Shown here: positions 3,571 to 42,259 of the stretch, in pieces | Position numbering within the stretch: position 1 is the stretch's first letter | Layout: the number at the start of each line of letters is the position of its first letter | DNA from: a virus | Lineage: Duplodnaviria > Heunggongvirae > Uroviricota > Caudoviricetes | Direction: 5' to 3' (one strand) | DNA: 64,000 nt | IMG/VR virus record: IMGVR_UViG_3300035494_000066 | Notes under the pieces: generated by a model | Seen by the model: the letters and a program-made list of their open reading frames with translations, nothing else | Database searches by the model: none | Told to the model about the DNA's origin: nothing | Position numbers and translations under genes: made by a program

Positions 3571-3656
3571 TGGCTCCTCGGGTAGGCTTCGAACCTACAA
3601 TGCCTATCGGCGCCTGATTAACAGTCAGGTGACTTTACCAGTTTGTCTACCGAGGA
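3571..3656 (-). tRNA. type-II (long variable arm) tRNA with anticodon GTT; discriminator G73
   Basis: 86 nt. 3-bp D stem with 11-nt D loop, perfect anticodon arm cctga-cTGTTaa-tcagg, 14-nt variable arm, T-arm gtaggttcgaagcctac, CCA. This architecture is normally Ser/Leu/Tyr, not Asn. Confidence 0.5.
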
Positions 3657-3667
3657 ATTTTAAAAAT

Positions 3668-3752
3668 TGGTAGCGAGAGCAGGATTCGAACCTACGAAGC
3701 CATTGGCAATGGGTTATGAGCCCATTCACTTTGTCCGCTTGTATATCTCGCA
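3668..3752 (-). tRNA. type-II (long variable arm) tRNA with anticodon CAT; 1:72 mismatch; discriminator A73
   Basis: 85 nt. 3-bp D stem with 11-nt D loop, perfect anticodon arm atggg-cTCATaa-cccat, 13-nt variable arm, T-arm gtaggttcgaatcctgc, CCA. Confidence 0.5.
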
Positions 3753-3967: not shown

Positions 3968-4043
3968 TGGCTCCCTGGACTGGATTCGAACCAGTAGCGA
4001 CTTGGTTAAAGCCAAGTGCCCCTACCTATAGGGCCCCCAGGGA
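3968..4043 (-). tRNA. tRNA-Lys-like with 6-nt anticodon loop (cTTTaa)
   Basis: All four arms are otherwise canonical: acceptor tccctgg/ccaggga, D gccc/gggc, T-arm actggttcgaatccagt, CCA. The perfect anticodon stem cttgg/ccaag encloses only 6 nt, ctttaa. Confidence 0.45.
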
Positions 4044-7700: not shown

Positions 7701-8520
7701 GAAGTTTCCTTTTTGTGTTTAGTGACATCTGTACTATGGTGAAGTTGACTAGATGCTGAGTTAATCTTTTTGTTAGCAGTAACTTTAATCACTGACGTGT
7801 TAACAAGGACTACAGCAACAGCTATCATCGACGCAGCGTTAATAACAAATATCTCTAGTCCGTATAAAAATAGTTCCACAGCAGCTACTATCTGCTAATC
7901 AGTTGCGTAGTTAATTGTACACATTCGCTGCTAGTGTGTCAATTGAGACCCGGTGAGAGTGGCTCCGAATATAAAGTAGTCAGCGACGAACGTAAGTTCA
8001 GCACCGACGAAACTGATGCGTAGTACCTCCCTGAATAGTTCCACATCTGCTTAATTACAAACTACGCAACTATTACCCGGGCAGTGTAGGCAATGTTACT
8101 GAAGATTAGTGTCGACAGTAACGGTATTTCACTTGCACTAACGACAGCGGCATTATATAATGCCGCTGTCGTACACATAACTTACTTGTGCAGCTATTAA
8201 CACTGCGATATAGTAGTTGGTATACCGATGAATGAAGCGTACAATATGCGCAGTTATAAGCAGTCTGTACGCAACATACACAATGTTTGCAATCACTAAC
8301 TCCATGTTAGTCAGCAACGATACTTTCTTTGTATACAACTGGCTTACCGGTGTGTTGCATAAAGTCTACTAGGTTCCGGTAAGTTACTGGTGTAATTTGT
8401 TTTCGAAGTGCAGTTACTGCAGCTGTCATGTCGTCGCCGATAATCCATTCATACTCGCCGGTTTACCGACTTCTGATTTTCGAGACCAGCGCATTCAACC
8501 ACTCTGCCAACTTGCTAAAT

Positions 8521-8595
8521 TTGGCCTGCCTACCAGGACTCGAACCCGGATTAAAGGAGTAGAAATCCTCTGTGTTATCCGTTACACTATAGGCA
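8521..8595 (-). tRNA. tRNA-Arg (anticodon TCT)
   Basis: Hand fold. Acceptor ctgccta/taggcag, D gtgt/acac, anticodon arm gagga-tTTCTac-tcctt, T-arm ccgggttcgagtcctgg, CCA. Confidence 0.65.
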
Positions 8596-8825
8596 GGTGA
8601 AGTTTTACTTTGTGTGCTGTTTCCAGCGATTTAAATCTCGGAGCAGTTTATCTGCTCGATCAAATACATTTTGTAACATTAACCGTTCGTAGTCAGTTGG
8701 GTCATAACTAGGCGTGCCAACTGTTTCTTCTACTACCGCAGATCGAAGTTCTGCAATTTGAAGCAGCTTGTTGTCAATCCAACTTGTAGTATGGATGCTC
8801 ATTATTACTACTCCTTTTTAATGTA

Positions 8826-8911
8826 TGGTACCGATGAACGGACTCGAACTGTTACGCTATCTCTAGCAGAAGATTTTGAATCTCCTGTGTCTACCATTCC
8901 ACCACATCGGC
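8826..8911 (-). tRNA. tRNA-Leu (anticodon CAA), type II
   Basis: 86 nt. Acceptor gccgatg/catcggt, 3-bp D stem, anticodon arm ggaga-tTCAAaa-tcttc, 15-nt variable arm, T-arm aacagttcgagtccgtt, CCA. Confidence 0.6.
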
Positions 8912-9005
8912 ATAGTATGCGTTTTTACTTATCAGCGTAAGGCCGCACCCCCTGCTAATGAACTTTTTTAACGTAGTGTTCGTCTACGTTCACGGGCGTG
9001 TTGTT

Positions 9006-9186
9006 TGGTGCAAACGACGGGACTCGAACCCGCAATTACAGTTAACAAGGGCATTACTCCTTGCTAGTACAAGATTGGAAAAGCAGTCATCCCGCCTTGA
9101 AACCATGCTCCTGTGCTACTCGCTGTTAGGATTTTACTCCTCACTGTCCTTTTTCAGTGTGCGTATGCCATTTCCGCCACGTTTGC
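9006..9186 (-). ncRNA. tRNA-like RNA: canonical T-arm and 3' acceptor half with CCA, plus a matching 5' acceptor strand 181 nt away (insert of ~105 nt)
   Basis: 3' part gcgggttcgagtcccgt-cgtttgc-a-cca at 9006-9035. The complementary gcaaacg lies at 9180-9186. The interior contains a hairpin cactg-aaaaagga-cagtg. Confidence 0.3.
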
Positions 9187-9196
9187 ATGTTAAAAT

Positions 9197-9270
9197 TGGT
9201 GGGTCTGCCTGGAATCGAACCAGGACCGAGCGGTTATGAGCCGCCTGCTCGACCGTCAAGCTACAGACCC
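9197..9270 (-). tRNA. tRNA with CAT anticodon (Met elongator or Ile2-type; 1:72 paired)
   Basis: Hand fold. Acceptor gggtctg/cagaccc, D gctt/gagc, anticodon arm ggcgg-cTCATaa-ccgct, T-arm cctggttcgattccagg, CCA. Confidence 0.65.
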
Positions 9271-9963
9271 TTAAACTTTATTACTTGCGTAGTATACGCA
9301 TTTTTATTTATTATGTCAAGTATTTTTACATCACACTATACAAGCAGGCGTCTTAGCTGCTCTAGTATTAAAGTAACACCGCATTCTAGACCAACTCGGT
9401 ATAGTTACTTCCTAGACTTCTCTAGTTGACACAATACATGGTCATATAACTGATCGTGTTATATCGCGTCATGTCACTTGCTGTGTGCCGCAGCTATACA
9501 ATGTGATGTAAAAATACGCCTCGCGAAGCGTCACTAGTACCAATTTATCCAGTGATCTCATCTACACCAATGGAGGTCACTGTGATCCGGTGGTAATCGC
9601 CATATGCCTGATCCTGTATTAGGGCACCTGGTTTTACTGGGTTGTAGTTGCCGGTGCTGATCTCCGGCTTGCTGGTTGTGACATCTTAGGTTCCGTTTCA
9701 AACCATACAGCGCTGTATGTACGCGGTTCCCAGCGGCAGTCGGGCCAGCGACCATCTCAAGTCTTGAGATTCTTCGTGCGAGGATAAGTCGCACTTCATC
9801 TCGCGCATCAGCCTGCGCATTTACTACAACTAGAAGCATACTGCTGTTAGTGCTTGTATCGTCCGCACTCTTATACTCAGACAGTCTGCCGCTGCTCTCA
9901 CACCAACTCGCGTATTCTGGCGCAACAGCAATATGCTTGTAGTTTTAGTAAAATACAGTAATC

Positions 9964-10040
9964 TGGTGCCAGTAGTGGGATTCGAACCCACACTTTACAG
10001 AATCTCGACCTGCTACCTCTGCCAATTGGGCTATACTGGC
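9964..10040 (-). tRNA. tRNA-like (type undetermined; possibly degenerate or Leu-GAG-like)
   Basis: Perfect acceptor gccagta/tactggc, T-arm gtgggttcgaatcccac and CCA. D and anticodon arms fold poorly by hand. Confidence 0.35.
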
Positions 10041-10056
10041 TATCTCTTATATTGTT

Positions 10057-10085
10057 ATTGTATTTTCTATGTGCTTTTGTGTCAA
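10057..10085 (-). promoter_or_regulatory. sigma70-like promoter TTGACA-17-TACAAT directed into the tRNA-like element at 10040
   Basis: Minus-strand reading gTTGACAcaaaagcacatagaaaaTACAATaac. Consensus -35 box with 17-bp spacer. Confidence 0.5.
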
Positions 10086-10633
10086 CTACTTTTTGAGAGT
10101 TTTTACTGTTTCTTTTAGCTCGCATTCTTTAATTTTACGGATTGTAATGTAAGCTCCATAAATCATTACTGCTGACATAAACACAATCCCAGCGACACTA
10201 GGAATTACAGTCGACAACGTGTATGGATCGATATTTGGCATAGTTAGTCCTGTTGCAGGTTAGTATAATTTCAGAATGGAAGAATTAGCGCAACAATTGT
10301 GGAATTATACTTGCCTTTGTGCTTAGAGTAGCCTTTTTTAATAGCCTTTTTCTTATCAGTATGTGTAACGGCTTTGTTGTACTTTAATGCATTCTTTGCA
10401 ACGTAGTTTCTGTTATTCATCGTCTATCTCGTTTTTATTTTCTTTTTTGCTATGTTGCTGCTTGAGCTCGTGTGCTTGTTTGATCACTGATGCCTCGCAC
10501 GAAACGTTGATATCTCGCAGTCGAAAACCGCATGCTTGAATGTAGTTAATAGCAGTCCTGTAGTCCATTTGCAGCTCCGTTTAGTTTCTTATTTACCTGA
10601 ATATTATAGCAGAAACAGACTACAGGTCAACCT

Positions 10634-34856: not shown

Positions 34857-36476
34857 TTACTTGTACGCTGCTAGTCGTTGCCGGATATCACTTAGTGTAC
34901 TAGTGTTGTACATCACACCATTGCAATATCTCAGTTTAAGTTCGCCGGTTGCAGCTTGCTCTTCGGTTTGCTGATCATACAGTACAAAAGAACCGTTTTC
35001 TTTTTCAACTCGCAGCAGACCTTTTGCCGACTTCTTAACGCCAGAGTCTGTAGCAGGGTCTTTAAAGATCTCCCGGCCAACGCCGTCGACCTCGCCGTAT
35101 GTTGCTTTCATTGCGTAGCCCAGGCTATCGCGTGTGTTGTACTGGTATGTATACGACCCGATGCCAAACACAACGTTGGTGCTAGCAAAACCTTTGTCTT
35201 TGAGTCGTTGCATAATTGCATCTGCCCGATCGAGTGTAATCGAATCACCGTAAATCAACCCGATGTGCTCGTCGAGGAGTTTATAACCCATTCCGGTCAC
35301 GGTACCTCCGAACGTGTCCCAAAGACACTCAACTGCTCCCTTAACTTCTGCTTCGCTAAGTTCGACAGAAGAGTTGTAATCATCACTTGGATCAGAGACT
35401 GTTCTAATAACACCGCGATACTTGTACGCTTCGTACTTCTCTTGTACGAGCTCTGGGTAACTTAGCTCATGATTAGCGTCCATGTCGTACATTTTATAGC
35501 CTGTTAGGATTTTAACAGGATCGCCTGAATCAGGGCGCAGTACTACTTTGGACAACCCGATTGCATTCCGGTCCCGTTTCATGATGCCATCTTTCAGTTT
35601 TGGCATGTACTCAGTCACCACTTTCCAGAAATCCCACGTGTCAGACACAACTGACACAACACCAGCTGGGTACAAGTCGAAGATAATACGCCGGAACGTT
35701 TCGATTTCTTCGTCTTTTTGGCCTAGGCACATAACCGAGTGTTCTGTTGCTGGAACACTAATGCCAACAATCTCATTGTCAGAATTAGCACCGTAGTACT
35801 CTTCTAGGTAATCAATTGCAGGAACTGTGTCAGTGCCGATAAACGATAGCAAGTGTCCGGAGCACGAACTTGCAGCATCGTGCAGGCCGCTCATACCGCG
35901 GAAGCTGAAGTCGTGTCCCTGGATTGCACTGAAATCAGTATTGCCTACAGTCTCTAGTGCATAACGATCGATGATACGTCGGTAATCTTTTGCAATAGTA
36001 GCAACAGTCGAAGGCTTCCACAGTTCGGCTGACATTACGCTTTCGATGTAGTTCACTAGCCAGTAAAACTGCGAGTAGCCAGGACTAACATCTACTGTTA
36101 CTGTTGGGATTTTTGCGCCGACCATTTCGCCTTCATCGATGCCTTTGATTGTTAGCGGCAAGAACCCTAGGTCGTGTAGTTCACCGATGTGCTCTACAGG
36201 AACGGCATTCATTCCGAGCGCGTTGTCCAGTCGACGTTTGTATTTTCTTACCACTTTCGCTTTCGGCTTACTAAAAAATGTATCACGCCAGTGATCGATG
36301 AGATACCATTTAATAAAGCCCTGCAGACCGAACACAACAGCAGTGTCACTCGTGCCTTTGTACAGTCGCATAGAACGAGGAGTAAAGTTAGAATACACTC
36401 GGGTAGTACCCGGAGTATATTGCCGGCGATGATCTGCTTTATAAAAATCAATCGCAGTTGGTGCAAATAGGTTCAT
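34857..36476 (-). CDS. nadV: nicotinamide phosphoribosyltransferase (Nampt/NadV)
   Basis: 539 aa. Nampt-like sequence throughout (type II phosphoribosyltransferase). Resembles KVP40-type phage NadV. Confidence 0.75.
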   Translation of the reverse strand: MNLFAPTAIDFYKADHRRQYTPGTTRVYSNFTPRSMRLYKGTSDTAVVFGLQGFIKWYLIDHWRDTFFSKPKAKVVRKYKRRLDNALGMNAVPVEHIGELHDLGFLPLTIKGIDEGEMVGAKIPTVTVDVSPGYSQFYWLVNYIESVMSAELWKPSTVATIAKDYRRIIDRYALETVGNTDFSAIQGHDFSFRGMSGLHDAASSCSGHLLSFIGTDTVPAIDYLEEYYGANSDNEIVGISVPATEHSVMCLGQKDEEIETFRRIIFDLYPAGVVSVVSDTWDFWKVVTEYMPKLKDGIMKRDRNAIGLSKVVLRPDSGDPVKILTGYKMYDMDANHELSYPELVQEKYEAYKYRGVIRTVSDPSDDYNSSVELSEAEVKGAVECLWDTFGGTVTGMGYKLLDEHIGLIYGDSITLDRADAIMQRLKDKGFASTNVVFGIGSYTYQYNTRDSLGYAMKATYGEVDGVGREIFKDPATDSGVKKSAKGLLRVEKENGSFVLYDQQTEEQAATGELKLRYCNGVMYNTSTLSDIRQRLAAYK

Positions 36477-36529
36477 GGATGATCCTTTGGTTTAATTTAA
36501 AAGTAGAGTTGTAAGTAACACAATTAACG

Positions 36530-36841
36530 TTAAGTGCCGCGCGTACCCCAGGTGGGCATTTCGAAGCATCCTTCGAGGTTTTCGATGCGAGTGGCTTCTA
36601 GGTACAAATCTGTAAATTCTTTACCGTATACTTCGTACCATTTTTTGACTTTACCTTCCGGAGCATACATGTAGCTAAAGCAGCAAGCATCAGACCAAAA
36701 TTTTCGGGCTTCGTCAGTGTAGCCGGCGTCGAGGATACATTGTTTGCATCGATTAATAACACCGTCCTCAAACCCGGCCCGGAAGTCTTTTGCAATAAGA
36801 GATGTTAGTAACGGGGTGCAAAGTTTAGCAACTATAGACAT
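36530..36841 (-). CDS. hypothetical Cys-rich protein (103 aa)
   Basis: Minus-strand ORF. Confidence 0.4.
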   Translation of the reverse strand: MSIVAKLCTPLLTSLIAKDFRAGFEDGVINRCKQCILDAGYTDEARKFWSDACCFSYMYAPEGKVKKWYEVYGKEFTDLYLEATRIENLEGCFEMPTWGTRGT

Positions 36842-36860
36842 TGTCGATACCTCTCAGAGT

Positions 36861-37061
36861 TTAGGCTCCGAGTGCGTAGAGTTCGTAGTTGAGTTCTTCT
36901 TGGTAATCGTTATAGCGTACATGGTCGTCTTCTGCAAGCATTGCAACTTGCTTATCAGTTAGCAGCAGGAAGTGATCGAACATGTTAACTAGTGTACCGT
37001 CTTCGTTACGGTCTAGTGCACGGAACTCTTTCATAGTGTACTTCTTAGTACGAGCGTTCAT
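36861..37061 (-). CDS. hypothetical protein (66 aa)
   Basis: Minus-strand ORF. Confidence 0.3.
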   Translation of the reverse strand: MNARTKKYTMKEFRALDRNEDGTLVNMFDHFLLLTDKQVAMLAEDDHVRYNDYQEELNYELYALGA

Positions 37062-37164
37062 ATCGCTGACCTCGTTTCCTTAGTTGATATGCATAGTATA
37101 CAACCAAAGAAAAGAGAAGTCGACTCTTTTTTGGCAAATTAATTAGTTTAATAGAACAGTAGTG

Positions 37165-38076
37165 TTACACTGACGCAACGATCAACTCGATGTTTGCATC
37201 TGCAGCAGAGTCGAAACTGTCTTGGTTAACAAACGTGTTTGTTGTAATAACAGTATCAATCAGGTTACTAAAAGGTTCGAAGCCTTTTGAAAAAATACCA
37301 TGCGGTGCTGCTAGTGTTACACTAGCCGGATTTAGTTCTTGCAAACGTTCTGCAATTTTAATGAACGTCATCCCACCGTCAACTATGTCGTCGTAAATAA
37401 TCACATGTGCAGACTCGACGTCTTCTCTTGCAGCGCGAACCGTAGTACGTACAATCTGACCGTTAGAAACATTCCTAACTTTGTCTGCACAAACAACACT
37501 AACAGTTGGCGCTTCTGCGTTCGTAGTAGCGTTATACGTGTTCCATTTAGTAACAAAGTCGAGTGTACGCTTAGTTGCACCAGCGTCTGGGCTGAGCACT
37601 ACTACGTTTTTCTTGGTTTCGGAATACAAAGAGTTGCCGTATGCAATCAGTTTATTATTCCACTTGGTTGTCATCGTCTCGGTTTCGACATTGTCGATAA
37701 GAGCACCAGTTACGTCCGAGTGAGGCATTAGTGTATACACAACATCAAATCCTAAGGAATTAATGATATTAGCCATCACCTTGATACCAAACGCCTCGCC
37801 TTCGGTGCACACTCGATCCTGTCGGCCGTACGGTACATAAGGCACTTTTAGGACTAGGTGCTTCGGTTTGTATGTTCGCTTAACAGCATCAGTTAGTAGC
37901 ACTAGCGCAACAATATCGCTGGCAGATTTGAGTTCAGCTGTAATAGTTGTTACGTTACTACGACCTAGTAGATTCGGAGTGCACTTCGGATGTAGTTCGC
38001 CGCCTGCAAACTCAATCCATCTAACATCAGCAATAGACCCGTCATTAGTGACTGTAAAGTTAGTTTTAGTTGTCAT
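37165..38076 (-). CDS. prs: ribose-phosphate pyrophosphokinase (PRPP synthetase)
   Basis: 303 aa. PRPP-binding region IIYDDIVDGGMT and Prs-like N-domain. Confidence 0.7.
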   Translation of the reverse strand: MTTKTNFTVTNDGSIADVRWIEFAGGELHPKCTPNLLGRSNVTTITAELKSASDIVALVLLTDAVKRTYKPKHLVLKVPYVPYGRQDRVCTEGEAFGIKVMANIINSLGFDVVYTLMPHSDVTGALIDNVETETMTTKWNNKLIAYGNSLYSETKKNVVVLSPDAGATKRTLDFVTKWNTYNATTNAEAPTVSVVCADKVRNVSNGQIVRTTVRAAREDVESAHVIIYDDIVDGGMTFIKIAERLQELNPASVTLAAPHGIFSKGFEPFSNLIDTVITTNTFVNQDSFDSAADANIELIVASV

Positions 38077-41245: not shown

Positions 41246-42259
41246 TTAGCCACCAGTCTTCAGAAGATACTTGTTGCTAATAGCCTTCCAGTGGTGGCCG
41301 CCATTTACTTCCTTGAACACTAGACCTTCTTGCTGCTTCTTGGGATTCACTGTACTAAAGTTCTCAGCGCGAGCTAGTACTTGCTCAATTGTTGCGTCTG
41401 TGTCAAACATGTACTCGGCGTCGACAACCGGAACGTGCTTTAACCCTAGTGTTTTGCACAGTGCAACACGTTCTGCGGCAGGCAGATACTTTCCTACACT
41501 GTAGTCGTATACAGTGTACACATAAAAATCTTGTCCTTTGATTCCGTAGTAGTTGCCCTGAATTCCTTCCCCAACAATCTCACCTTGGAGTGCTAGCGTA
41601 GTCAAGTTGTTGTCTCGCAACCGCTGTTCGATGTTATATGCGCGGGCAACTTTCCAAAGAGAGTTCTTCTCGCTCTCTTTGAGATTTAAGTTTCTGCCGC
41701 AAACGATAAAATCACCATCGGCGTCGATTGCAACTGTCATTGAGCTACCTTCGAGTTTTTCGGTAACTTCGTATGTTAGCTGTTTTAGGTCGCCCCACTG
41801 ACTAGCTAGATTCTGGATTCGTTCTTCATCGGTTTTCGGAATGTAGCCAGGGAACACACCTTTAACTTCGCCCGATAGGCACGCTGGGATAGGCGGCTCG
41901 TATTTGAGGATCCCGAGCATCTGAGTAACGTCATCGCCAACTGCAATGTCCATTTTACTGCGCACCAGTGACATAGGAAGGAGCAGGCCTTGACTCAATT
42001 GGCCGCGGAGTCGCATAGTTCGAAGGCGATAACCTTGCACGCCGGAAAATTCAGTCGGGCCAGTGCCGCGGTCAAGGAATGGCGCAATTTCATGCGGGAT
42101 AAAACTGTCAACTTCACAATAAATTGCACGATCGCCAGCAGTGTACTCGCCTTTGCGAACAACAACAGTCCAACCGTCGATAACAGCACACTCAATCTGG
42201 TCGGCTCCGGGGATGCTGCGAACAGAGTCAATTGTACGAATAGATGCTAGCTTTCTCAT
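41246..42259 (-). CDS. ATP-dependent RNA ligase-like nucleotidyltransferase (337 aa)
   Basis: Motif I-like EKLEGSS (KxxG). Ligase-size protein next to a tRNA-rich region and a Pnk-like kinase elsewhere in the window. Confidence 0.5.
   Translation of the reverse strand: MRKLASIRTIDSVRSIPGADQIECAVIDGWTVVVRKGEYTAGDRAIYCEVDSFIPHEIAPFLDRGTGPTEFSGVQGYRLRTMRLRGQLSQGLLLPMSLVRSKMDIAVGDDVTQMLGILKYEPPIPACLSGEVKGVFPGYIPKTDEERIQNLASQWGDLKQLTYEVTEKLEGSSMTVAIDADGDFIVCGRNLNLKESEKNSLWKVARAYNIEQRLRDNNLTTLALQGEIVGEGIQGNYYGIKGQDFYVYTVYDYSVGKYLPAAERVALCKTLGLKHVPVVDAEYMFDTDATIEQVLARAENFSTVNPKKQQEGLVFKEVNGGHHWKAISNKYLLKTGG

Follow-up and report, generated by a model that had tools for sequence, protein, structure and literature searches.

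The stretch of DNA considered here is a 64,000-nucleotide (64-kb) section of IMG/VR virus record IMGVR_UViG_3300035494_000066 (Caudoviricetes), which we call the window. It carries 29 transfer RNA (tRNA) genes on the minus strand, every one of them with an encoded CCA. Among these genes, on the minus strand from 9186 to 9006, lies a 181-nucleotide (nt) element that a preliminary description took to be either a tRNA interrupted by an intron or mobile insert or a tRNA-like small RNA. We found it to be a real, selected RNA gene, a member of a family that is tied to Rtc operons and tRNA arrays and is unable to decode. That it is the compact phage form of a conserved, 180-230-nt family of structured, tRNA-shaped RNAs is well supported. 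The element is preceded on the same strand by a sigma-70-type promoter (TTGACA-17-TATACT, 11/12) at 9319-9291 and by a tRNA-Met(CAU) gene at 9197-9270, whose CCA ends 10 nt before the element and which is presumed to be the first cistron of the same transcript. A tRNA-Leu gene lies 94 nt downstream.

Read from 5' to 3', the element has the layout GCAAACG-UG-GCG-GAAAUGGCAUA-CGC-A-CACUG-AAAAAGGA-CAGUG-[95 nt]-GCGGG-UUCGAGU-CCCGU-CGUUUGC-A-CCA. The 5' strand of the acceptor stem P1, GCAAACG, occupies 9180-9186. It is followed at 9161-9179 by U8-G9 and a D-arm of the class II tRNA type (GCG/GAAAUGGCAUA/CGC), with a 3-bp stem and an 11-nt loop containing GG. Next, at 9142-9159 and in the position of an anticodon arm, comes the 5-bp "arm 2" (CACUG/AAAAAGGA/CAGUG), which has an A-rich, 8-nt loop without U33. 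A26 sits between these two arms, its canonical place in the cloverleaf. The variable-arm position is taken up by a structured domain of about 95 nt. This begins with the P4 hairpin (AGGA/GUAAAA/UCCU, 9128-9141), whose UAA-A loop is near-invariant in the family, and the rest of it is closed by Pv, with its 5' strand ACAG at 9123-9126 and its 3' strand CUGU at 9038-9041. Within Pv are a long irregular hairpin, P5-P5b-P6 (ACAGGA..UGG..AAGGCGG/GAUGA/CUGCUUU..CCA..UCUUGU, 9069-9114), and the P7 hairpin (GCAAGG/AGUAAUGC/CCUUGU, 9045-9064). The T-arm (GCGGG/UUCGAGU/CCCGU) lies at 9017-9033, and the element ends at 9006-9016 with the 3' acceptor strand CGUUUGC (9016-9010), the discriminator A73 (9009) and the encoded CCA (9008-9006). 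The preliminary description had placed the T-arm, acceptor strands, discriminator, CCA and interior hairpin of arm 2 correctly. Its statement that there is no normal cloverleaf core does not hold, since U8-G9, the 3-bp D-stem with its GG loop, A26 and the 5-bp hairpin are all canonical.

The same description held that nothing nearer could pair with the 3' acceptor strand, and we agree: within 400 nt upstream the only 7/7 Watson-Crick partner is the one that closes the 181-nt unit, nearer offsets reaching at most 6/7 pairs. This closure by itself is only moderately unlikely (p~0.023 in mononucleotide shuffles), and the single-sequence fold of the element has a z-score of only -2.0 against shuffles. 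These two values, together with the rejection of the element by tRNA finders, would be compatible with a decaying tRNA pseudogene, or with a T-arm and a complementary heptamer brought together by chance. In its comparative structure, the window copy forms 50 canonical pairs with no mismatches at -52.7 kcal/mol; the minimum free energy (MFE) is -56.9 kcal/mol, and nearly all helices are common to the MFE and comparative structures. It is the 41 other sequences, in which the element is conserved with compensatory changes, that place it far beyond chance.

Homologs with 72-79% identity were found by blastn in six Vibrio phages of about 190 kb (pv27, phiTY18, phiKT1024, Va1, TDDLMA and SRILMA). 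These copies start 6-10 nt 3' of a long tRNA-Cys gene, and they are unannotated or overlaid by an opposite-strand open reading frame (ORF) for a "hypothetical protein." From the shared 3' part we derived a signature, GGAGTAATG...GCGGGTTCGA, which was used as one exact pattern in one scan per large collection. It yielded two further viral lineages (L066 and L071/L078) and about 35 further distinct units of 182-231 nt in metagenome and genome collections, each of the latter closed by a 7-bp acceptor stem. Many of these come from chromosomes or metagenome-assembled genomes of Beta- and Gammaproteobacteria, among them Azonexus, Azovibrio, Dechloromonas, Chitinimonas, Undibacterium, Thiothrix, Thiomargarita and Arenicella. 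The window copy aligns with the bacterial units block for block, lacking only a segment of about 45 nt at the tip of the long P5-P6 hairpin. CCA is encoded in 38 of the 42 members.

Other searches added no members. A scan with an off-by-one pattern, TGNNNGGAAATGGCATAC, which the window itself does not match, returned 58 loci, all of them chance matches or ordinary tRNAs. Two scans of viral sequences with patterns independent of the T-arm also gave 58 loci, none of which was a member by covariance model. The 1.9-kb region had no match among cultured phages by megablast, and the L066 and L071 units as blastn queries recovered no more cultured phages. The phage form is rare in the viral collection scanned.

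Our structure model, obtained with RNAalifold and manual refinement, consists of P1, the D-arm, arm 2, P4, Pv, P5-P6, P7 and the T-arm. In the alignment of the 42 members, 96.5% of the cells are paired, versus 73.2% with the letters of the 3' side shuffled and 42-47% with partners slid over 1-3 columns. Compensatory double changes are present in 27 of the 36 pairs (350 cells), and none of 500 shuffles reached any of these measures. In the acceptor stem, 99.7% of the cells are paired, all 7/7 pairs covary, and a single pair has as many as 17 double changes. Of the 42 members, 41 have a D-stem and an arm 2 in their fixed places, the former in 11 and the latter in 16 distinct versions; when the 5' strand of one member is set against the 3' strand of another, these two helices pair fully in only 7-8% of cases. 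Covariation had been suggested earlier as a check, and the compensatory signal is strong across the family. Conserved loops are GUAAAA in P4, GAUG at the apex of P5-P6 and AGUAAUG in P7. The arm-2 loop ranges from 7 to 18 nt across relatives and is A-rich on its 5' side, reading AAAAAGG in phage copies versus AAA(A)CG in bacterial copies. We regard the element as non-decoding because this loop lacks U33 throughout that range of lengths. Two ideas that arose by eye were discarded: a likeness of the type I junction GGUGAAGG to the 16S decoding-site strand, which is not conserved family-wide, and a reading of AGGAGUAAUG as a Shine-Dalgarno sequence with AUG, for which the two are too closely spaced and the window and pv27 do not agree in frame.

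Membership of the window copy was measured with a covariance model, R2, that was made from bacterial and metagenomic members only and contains no phage copy. R2 scored 110.5 bits on the window (E 4.5e-32, E-values from the R1 and R2 models being rough), over model positions 1-218 and exactly at 9006-9186 on the minus strand. All of the helices are present and collinear in this copy: P1, D, arm 2, P4 (GUAAAA), Pv, P5/P6 (GAUG), P7 (AGUAAUG) and T. The Vibrio phage copies scored 88.7-90.2 bits, and the compact-type or viral members L066, L101, L082 and L071 scored 65-141 bits. The highest-scoring ordinary tRNA in the window reached 30.4 bits. A tRNA-Asp with the same T-arm sequence reached only 17.1 bits, and the part of the score imposed by our selection of members is therefore at most about a third. 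The 350 compensatory cells over 27 pairs, the 110.5 bits from a phage-free model and conservation across unrelated phages and bacteria refute the pseudogene or chance reading.

These results also bear on whether an intron or mobile insert might be excised, leaving a functional tRNA. In favor of this reading, the acceptor stem, D-arm, T-arm and CCA are all of tRNA grade, the RtcB that neighbors bacterial copies is a tRNA-splicing ligase in archaea and eukaryotes (PMC8421152), and one relative (L161/L090) has an additional insertion of about 80 nt in the T-loop region. Nevertheless, the extra segment comes after arm 2 and before the T-arm, in the variable-arm position and outside the anticodon loop, and it is retained with compensatory changes in all 42 members. 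No Rfam intron family matched at E<=10 over 8400-10200, and a group I intron would need more than a segment of about 95 nt. Furthermore, any excision would leave the window copy with its 8-nt loop, and arm-2 loops of 7-18 nt without U33 could not decode. An interrupted tRNA is thus very improbable, and of the two readings offered in the preliminary description the tRNA-like small RNA is the one that stands: a conserved, covarying, tRNA-shaped molecule whose loop is not of the anticodon type.

The element does not correspond to an RNA family that we could name. Neither ARAGORN nor Rfam, at gathering thresholds and at E<=10, called a tRNA, tmRNA or intron on the element. Rfam gave only fragments of the transfer-messenger RNA (tmRNA) model over the T-arm, at 14.9-16 bits, and the tRNA family RF00005 (gathering threshold 29 bits) had no match on the element at E<=10. 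Rfam 15 has no family for the element or the bacterial units, and none is close. With tRNAs the element shares the 7-bp acceptor stem, the T-arm with its GUUCRANYC loop, the discriminator, CCA and a D-arm with G18G19, whereas it has no 7-nt anticodon loop with U33 and a purine at position 37. The likeness extends to class II tRNAs (Leu, Ser, Tyr), which also have UG, a 3-bp D-stem, a 10-11-nt D-loop with GG, A26, a 5-bp arm and a long extra arm. In class II tRNAs, however, the variable region is 13-21 nt long, compared with about 95-140 nt and three hairpins in the family, which has no anticodon loop. The true tRNAs that scored highest with R1 and R2 were of class II (T4 tRNA-Leu, the window tRNA-Tyr, and the Ser and Tyr tRNAs of L063). 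Because of these scores and the class II type of the D-arm, descent from a class II tRNA is plausible, and the family probably originated from one by expansion of the variable arm.

An 87-nt gene called as "tRNA-???" in L064 (670-756) and L065 (154-240) has a D-arm identical to that of the window element (UGGCGGAAAUGGCAUACGC), a loop of 8 nt that is rich in A (GACAAAAA) and a long variable arm of the ordinary kind. It is not scored as a member by R1 or R2 and may be a short relative or a precursor form.

The family has some of the features of tmRNA (RF00023), namely the 7-bp acceptor stem, T-arm, discriminator and CCA, as well as a link to translational stress. Many bacterial members have tmRNA-like ends, GGGG(G/C)UG...CACCUCC-ACCA, with G3:U70. 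It could therefore be proposed that the RNA is an aminoacylated rescue factor resembling a miniature tmRNA: with an amino acid attached to its CCA, it would go into stalled ribosomes, or pass the amino acid on in another rescue reaction, during translational stress. End to end, RF00023 scored 30.1 and 26.5 bits on two bacterial members (E 1e-10 to 1e-7). Both values are below the 47-bit cutoff and come from the acceptor stem, T-arm and ACCA only, with 163 nt skipped. The alanine identity pair G3:U70 is present in 22 of 42 members (pair 3:70 being GC in 14, AU in 4, and A3-U70 in the window), but it is absent from all phage copies and differs between close relatives (GU in L114, GC in L137). 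The encoded CCA in most members and the co-occurrence with near-complete tRNA sets and stress operons would suit a charged RNA, as would A73 and the tRNA-Leu-like D-arm of the window copy; the E. coli leucyl-tRNA synthetase is not known to read the anticodon. On the other hand, the family RNA is about half as long as tmRNA, has a full D-arm and arm 2 that tmRNA has not, lacks the pseudoknot and tag-ORF layout, and is not called by ARAGORN as tmRNA. Nor is there a conserved reading frame: the frames from the arm-2 loop to the invariant UAA are split 19/17/4 with variable in-frame stops, and we rejected the mini-ORF or tmRNA-tag idea on this test, which covered that interval, other candidate frames being inspected by eye only. 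A charged, tmRNA-like role has lost support in the tests run here, and we consider it unlikely.

The Y RNAs YrlA (RF02553) and YrlB (RF02565) are tRNA mimics with T- and D-arm-like modules (PMC4201824), and they are encoded in the same RtcR-regulated operons as the bacterial units. In YrlA, however, the modules are permuted, with the T-arm before the D-arm, and the ends form the Ro60-binding stem; most have no 7-bp acceptor stem or CCA. The Rfam models of YrlA and YrlB had no match on the window element or on the bacterial units. Conversely, a Salmonella-type rtcB fragment that Rfam scores at 105.5 bits for YrlB and 70.9 bits for YrlA gave only a 17-nt T-loop match with R2. The species 1 and 2 RNAs of phage T4 (rnaC and rnaD) are likewise stable, non-tRNA RNAs that end a phage tRNA cluster in the same orientation, and rnaC resembles a tRNA in its 3' part, which has a T-arm and an acceptor-like stem. 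They differ in length (139 and 119 nt) and internal structure. R1 scored 24.9 bits on the 3' part of rnaC only, which is the level of ordinary tRNAs (T4 tRNA-Leu, 35.8 bits), and we rejected rnaC and rnaD as homologs and regard them as analogues only. In the literature searched we found no description of the present RNA, which may nevertheless have been mentioned before; for Ro-containing rtc operons, Das and Shuman mention only a conserved "noncoding gap."

The bacterial copies are flanked by genes for RtcR, Ro60, YrlA, band-7 protein, RtcB and RlaP, in RtcR-controlled operons. The order is RtcR / Ro60 - YrlA - unit - YrlA - RtcB - RlaP in L133, so that the unit is between two YrlA genes; it is RtcR / tRNA-like - band-7 - unit - RtcB - RlaP in L137, and RtcR / unit - Ro60 in L167. 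Members adjoining Ro60 genes include L102, L167 and L133. Among the 39 non-viral members, 21 are beside Rtc-type proteins only, 3 are also in a tRNA array and 9 are in tRNA arrays only. The other 6 have neither context in the flanks examined, and for one of these, L119, an identical copy lies beside RtcB in L163. Arrays holding units contain 3-47 tRNA genes, the large ones being those of L084 (47 genes in 8.3 kb), L116 (28), L161 (20), L146 (15) and L106 (12). The remaining loci are mobile or defense contexts, with a restriction-modification island, TnpB or a VapE primase. The unit is always co-oriented with neighboring tRNAs and genes, and in 4 of 5 viral lineages a tRNA lies on the same strand within 300 nt.

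This arrangement could be explained if the tRNA-like fold were only a cis-acting signal, stabilizing polycistronic tRNA or rtc transcripts or marking them for RNase P and RNase Z, with no function in trans. In favor of this, every unit lies within a transcription unit, with tRNAs or with band-7 and rtcB on its two sides, and no functional feature is better conserved than the 7-bp acceptor stem and CCA. Such punctuation could be achieved with ordinary tRNAs or simple minihelices, though, and the family has kept an extra domain of about 100 nt, with covarying helices and conserved loops, from Betaproteobacteria to phages. The RNA is also conserved between phages with unrelated flanking genes: we sampled 23 proteins encoded in the 40 kb around the pv27 copy, and all lack homologs in the window, while the RNAs are 72% identical, and the RNA is therefore conserved independently of its surroundings. 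We regard a purely cis-acting role as quite improbable.

Several rtc operons of Beta- and Gammaproteobacterial loci open with a further tRNA-like gene of about 74 nt (L137 4633-4706, L147 6551-6624, L162 5308-5381, L153 2148-2221, L114 5101-5174, L154 4991-5063 and L166 4952-5024). Its "anticodon" varies among related operons (CAU, UGU, AAA, AAU). Rfam was run on two of these loci, L137 and L153, and there its acceptor ends match the tRNA model poorly. It may be a second tRNA mimic.

Taken as a whole, the data seem to us best explained by a non-decoding, tRNA-derived RNA that matures as a tRNA does and acts in conflicts over tRNA damage and repair, an explanation that we think probable, with considerable room for doubt. 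From its anatomy and established tRNA biology, the window copy would be co-transcribed with tRNA-Met from the promoter at 9319-9291. RNase P would cut its 5' end at the 7-bp acceptor stem, and the 3' end would be trimmed to the encoded CCA, as for the 29 surrounding tRNAs. The GG of the D-loop and the UUCGA of the T-loop would form an L-shaped elbow. The tRNA-shaped body might then be presented to a protein whose usual targets are tRNAs or broken tRNAs, the extra domain giving specificity.

For the functional step itself, the role of a tRNA mimic in damage and repair, genomic context and literature permit only a tentative proposal, which may well be wrong. Rtc operons respond to damaged tRNAs, and it has been proposed that a tRNA-like domain of Y RNA inhibits an anticodon nuclease by competition (PMC7790460). 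RlaP mends tRNAs from which nucleotides are missing (PMC12776372). Under translational stress, long tRNA arrays and rtcB are regulated together, and the arrays have been proposed as sponges for toxin RNases (PMC8421152). The bacterial copies would be expressed with RtcB, Ro60, RlaP and spare tRNAs. The phage copy may act, alongside replacement tRNAs, as a protective decoy or competitive ligand of a host tRNA-directed nuclease; we lean toward this role because the copy travels with replacement tRNAs and without a linked RtcB. A cofactor of ligase-based repair would be a close alternative and nearly as likely.

Several points weigh against the proposed family and its function. The function is deduced from bacterial neighborhoods, whereas the viral loci have no Rtc genes: tblastn found no homolog of RtcB, RtcR, Ro60, RlaP or band-7 protein in the window or in the other viral loci. 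Conversely, the RtcB-encoding jumbo phages Caulobacter Magneto, Ralstonia RP12 and Erwinia Desertfox contain no family member. Given the differing arm-2 loops, a single ligand common to phage and bacterial copies is not guaranteed. All members were gathered with a pattern fixing GGAGTAATG and GCGGGTTCGA, so that the breadth of the family is that of this sample and the T-stem and P7 loop look invariant as an artifact of selecting on them. A sequence-only profile of the bacterial 5' halves had the element as its sole match in the window and in the right register, but with E=0.86; the 5' half is conserved more in structure than in sequence. Finally, the 42-member alignment was fitted to the model, which favors the structure. 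The covariation signal is nevertheless independent of that fitting, because of the slid-partner control and because 23 of 33 pairs are compensatory in the raw MAFFT alignment.

It is possible, with the chances nearly balanced, that the element is the viral branch of an undescribed class of tRNA-derived RNAs that is a dedicated component of RtcR-RtcB-Ro60-RlaP operons and long "spare" tRNA arrays, captured by phages and carried with their own tRNA arrays, in stripped-down form, as a counter-defense tool. If so, operon-encoded RNAs would number three, the family joining YrlA and YrlB and having a true acceptor/CCA end; it may be charged, or repair or nuclease proteins may recognize it as a tRNA. 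A conserved, strongly covarying RNA common to Rtc operons, long tRNA arrays and phage tRNA clusters ties these loci together physically, and is a concrete molecule with which to ask what Rtc operons act on and bind and what the long arrays are for. Known tRNA mimics (tmRNA, Y RNAs, viral tRNA-like structures and the T4 species 1 and 2 RNAs) are few, and the family would add to them and give phage biology a candidate RNA-based counter-defense element. A covariance model would improve annotation, as the gene is unannotated or mis-annotated in deposited phage genomes and absent from Rfam 15.

In the course of these comparisons we noted several irregular genes near family members or in their usual places. 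The tRNA upstream of the element in pv27 (L001 1398-1479) and Va1 (L003 1316-1402) is called as tRNA-Cys(GCA), is 81-87 nt long and has a long variable arm, which is odd for tRNA-Cys. The member with the T-loop-region insertion (L161 5488-5781, L090 1-234) is 294 nt long, scores 133 bits and may be a decayed copy or a true insertion. In Caulobacter phage Magneto, gp177 (L170 3758-3964) is a 207-nt "hypothetical protein" gene between those for band-7 protein and RtcB, the slot that the RNA has in bacteria; it matches no model, and may be either another kind of RNA or a small gene with no relation to the family. Viral contigs and pv27 also contain long tRNA-like matches (95-240 nt, 17-28 bits) that are not called by ARAGORN: L033 2049-2165, 2601-2710 and 4544-4663, L011 8983-9089, L071 5575-5692, and L174 15286-15381 and 16065-16305.

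Some of the other minus-strand tRNA genes of the window are themselves unusual. The neighbor at 9964-10040 had been described as irregular and driven by a TTGACA-17-TACAAT promoter, and both observations were borne out. It is called as tRNA-Leu(GAG) with 53.8 bits, yet is of class I with a short variable loop, C33 and a mismatched D-stem pair, and its own near-consensus promoter lies at 10085-10057. The gene at 3968-4043, for which ARAGORN reports "tRNA-???" with a 2-nt anticodon, has a 6-bp stem with a 6-nt loop (CUUUAA) in an otherwise good tRNA (46.9 bits with Rfam); it may be a suppressor-like or otherwise non-standard decoder. The genes called Asn(GUU) at 3571-3656 (86 nt) and Met(CAU) at 3668-3752 (85 nt) have long variable arms, unusual for these isotypes. 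A weak tRNA-like match at 8455-8516 (RF00005, 20.6 bits, E 0.36) has a truncated T-arm region and may be a decayed tRNA.

The window belongs to a large lytic phage that has auxiliary and repair genes and to which no cultured phage is closely related. Its genes include those for nicotinate phosphoribosyltransferase (NAPRTase), phosphoribosyl pyrophosphate (PRPP) synthetase, DNA ligase, type II topoisomerase subunits and three radical S-adenosylmethionine enzymes. A phage RNA ligase of the Rnl type (PF09414 with a PHA02142 OB-fold) is encoded at 41246-42259 on the minus strand. It suggests that the phage has RNA-repair capacity, and its link to the element, 32 kb away, is one of genome context only. 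The NAPRTase and PRPP synthetase genes (34857-38076, minus strand) are close to this ligase gene, and RP12 has the same set beside RtcB (L171). The set looks like an auxiliary module for nicotinamide adenine dinucleotide (NAD) salvage and RNA repair.

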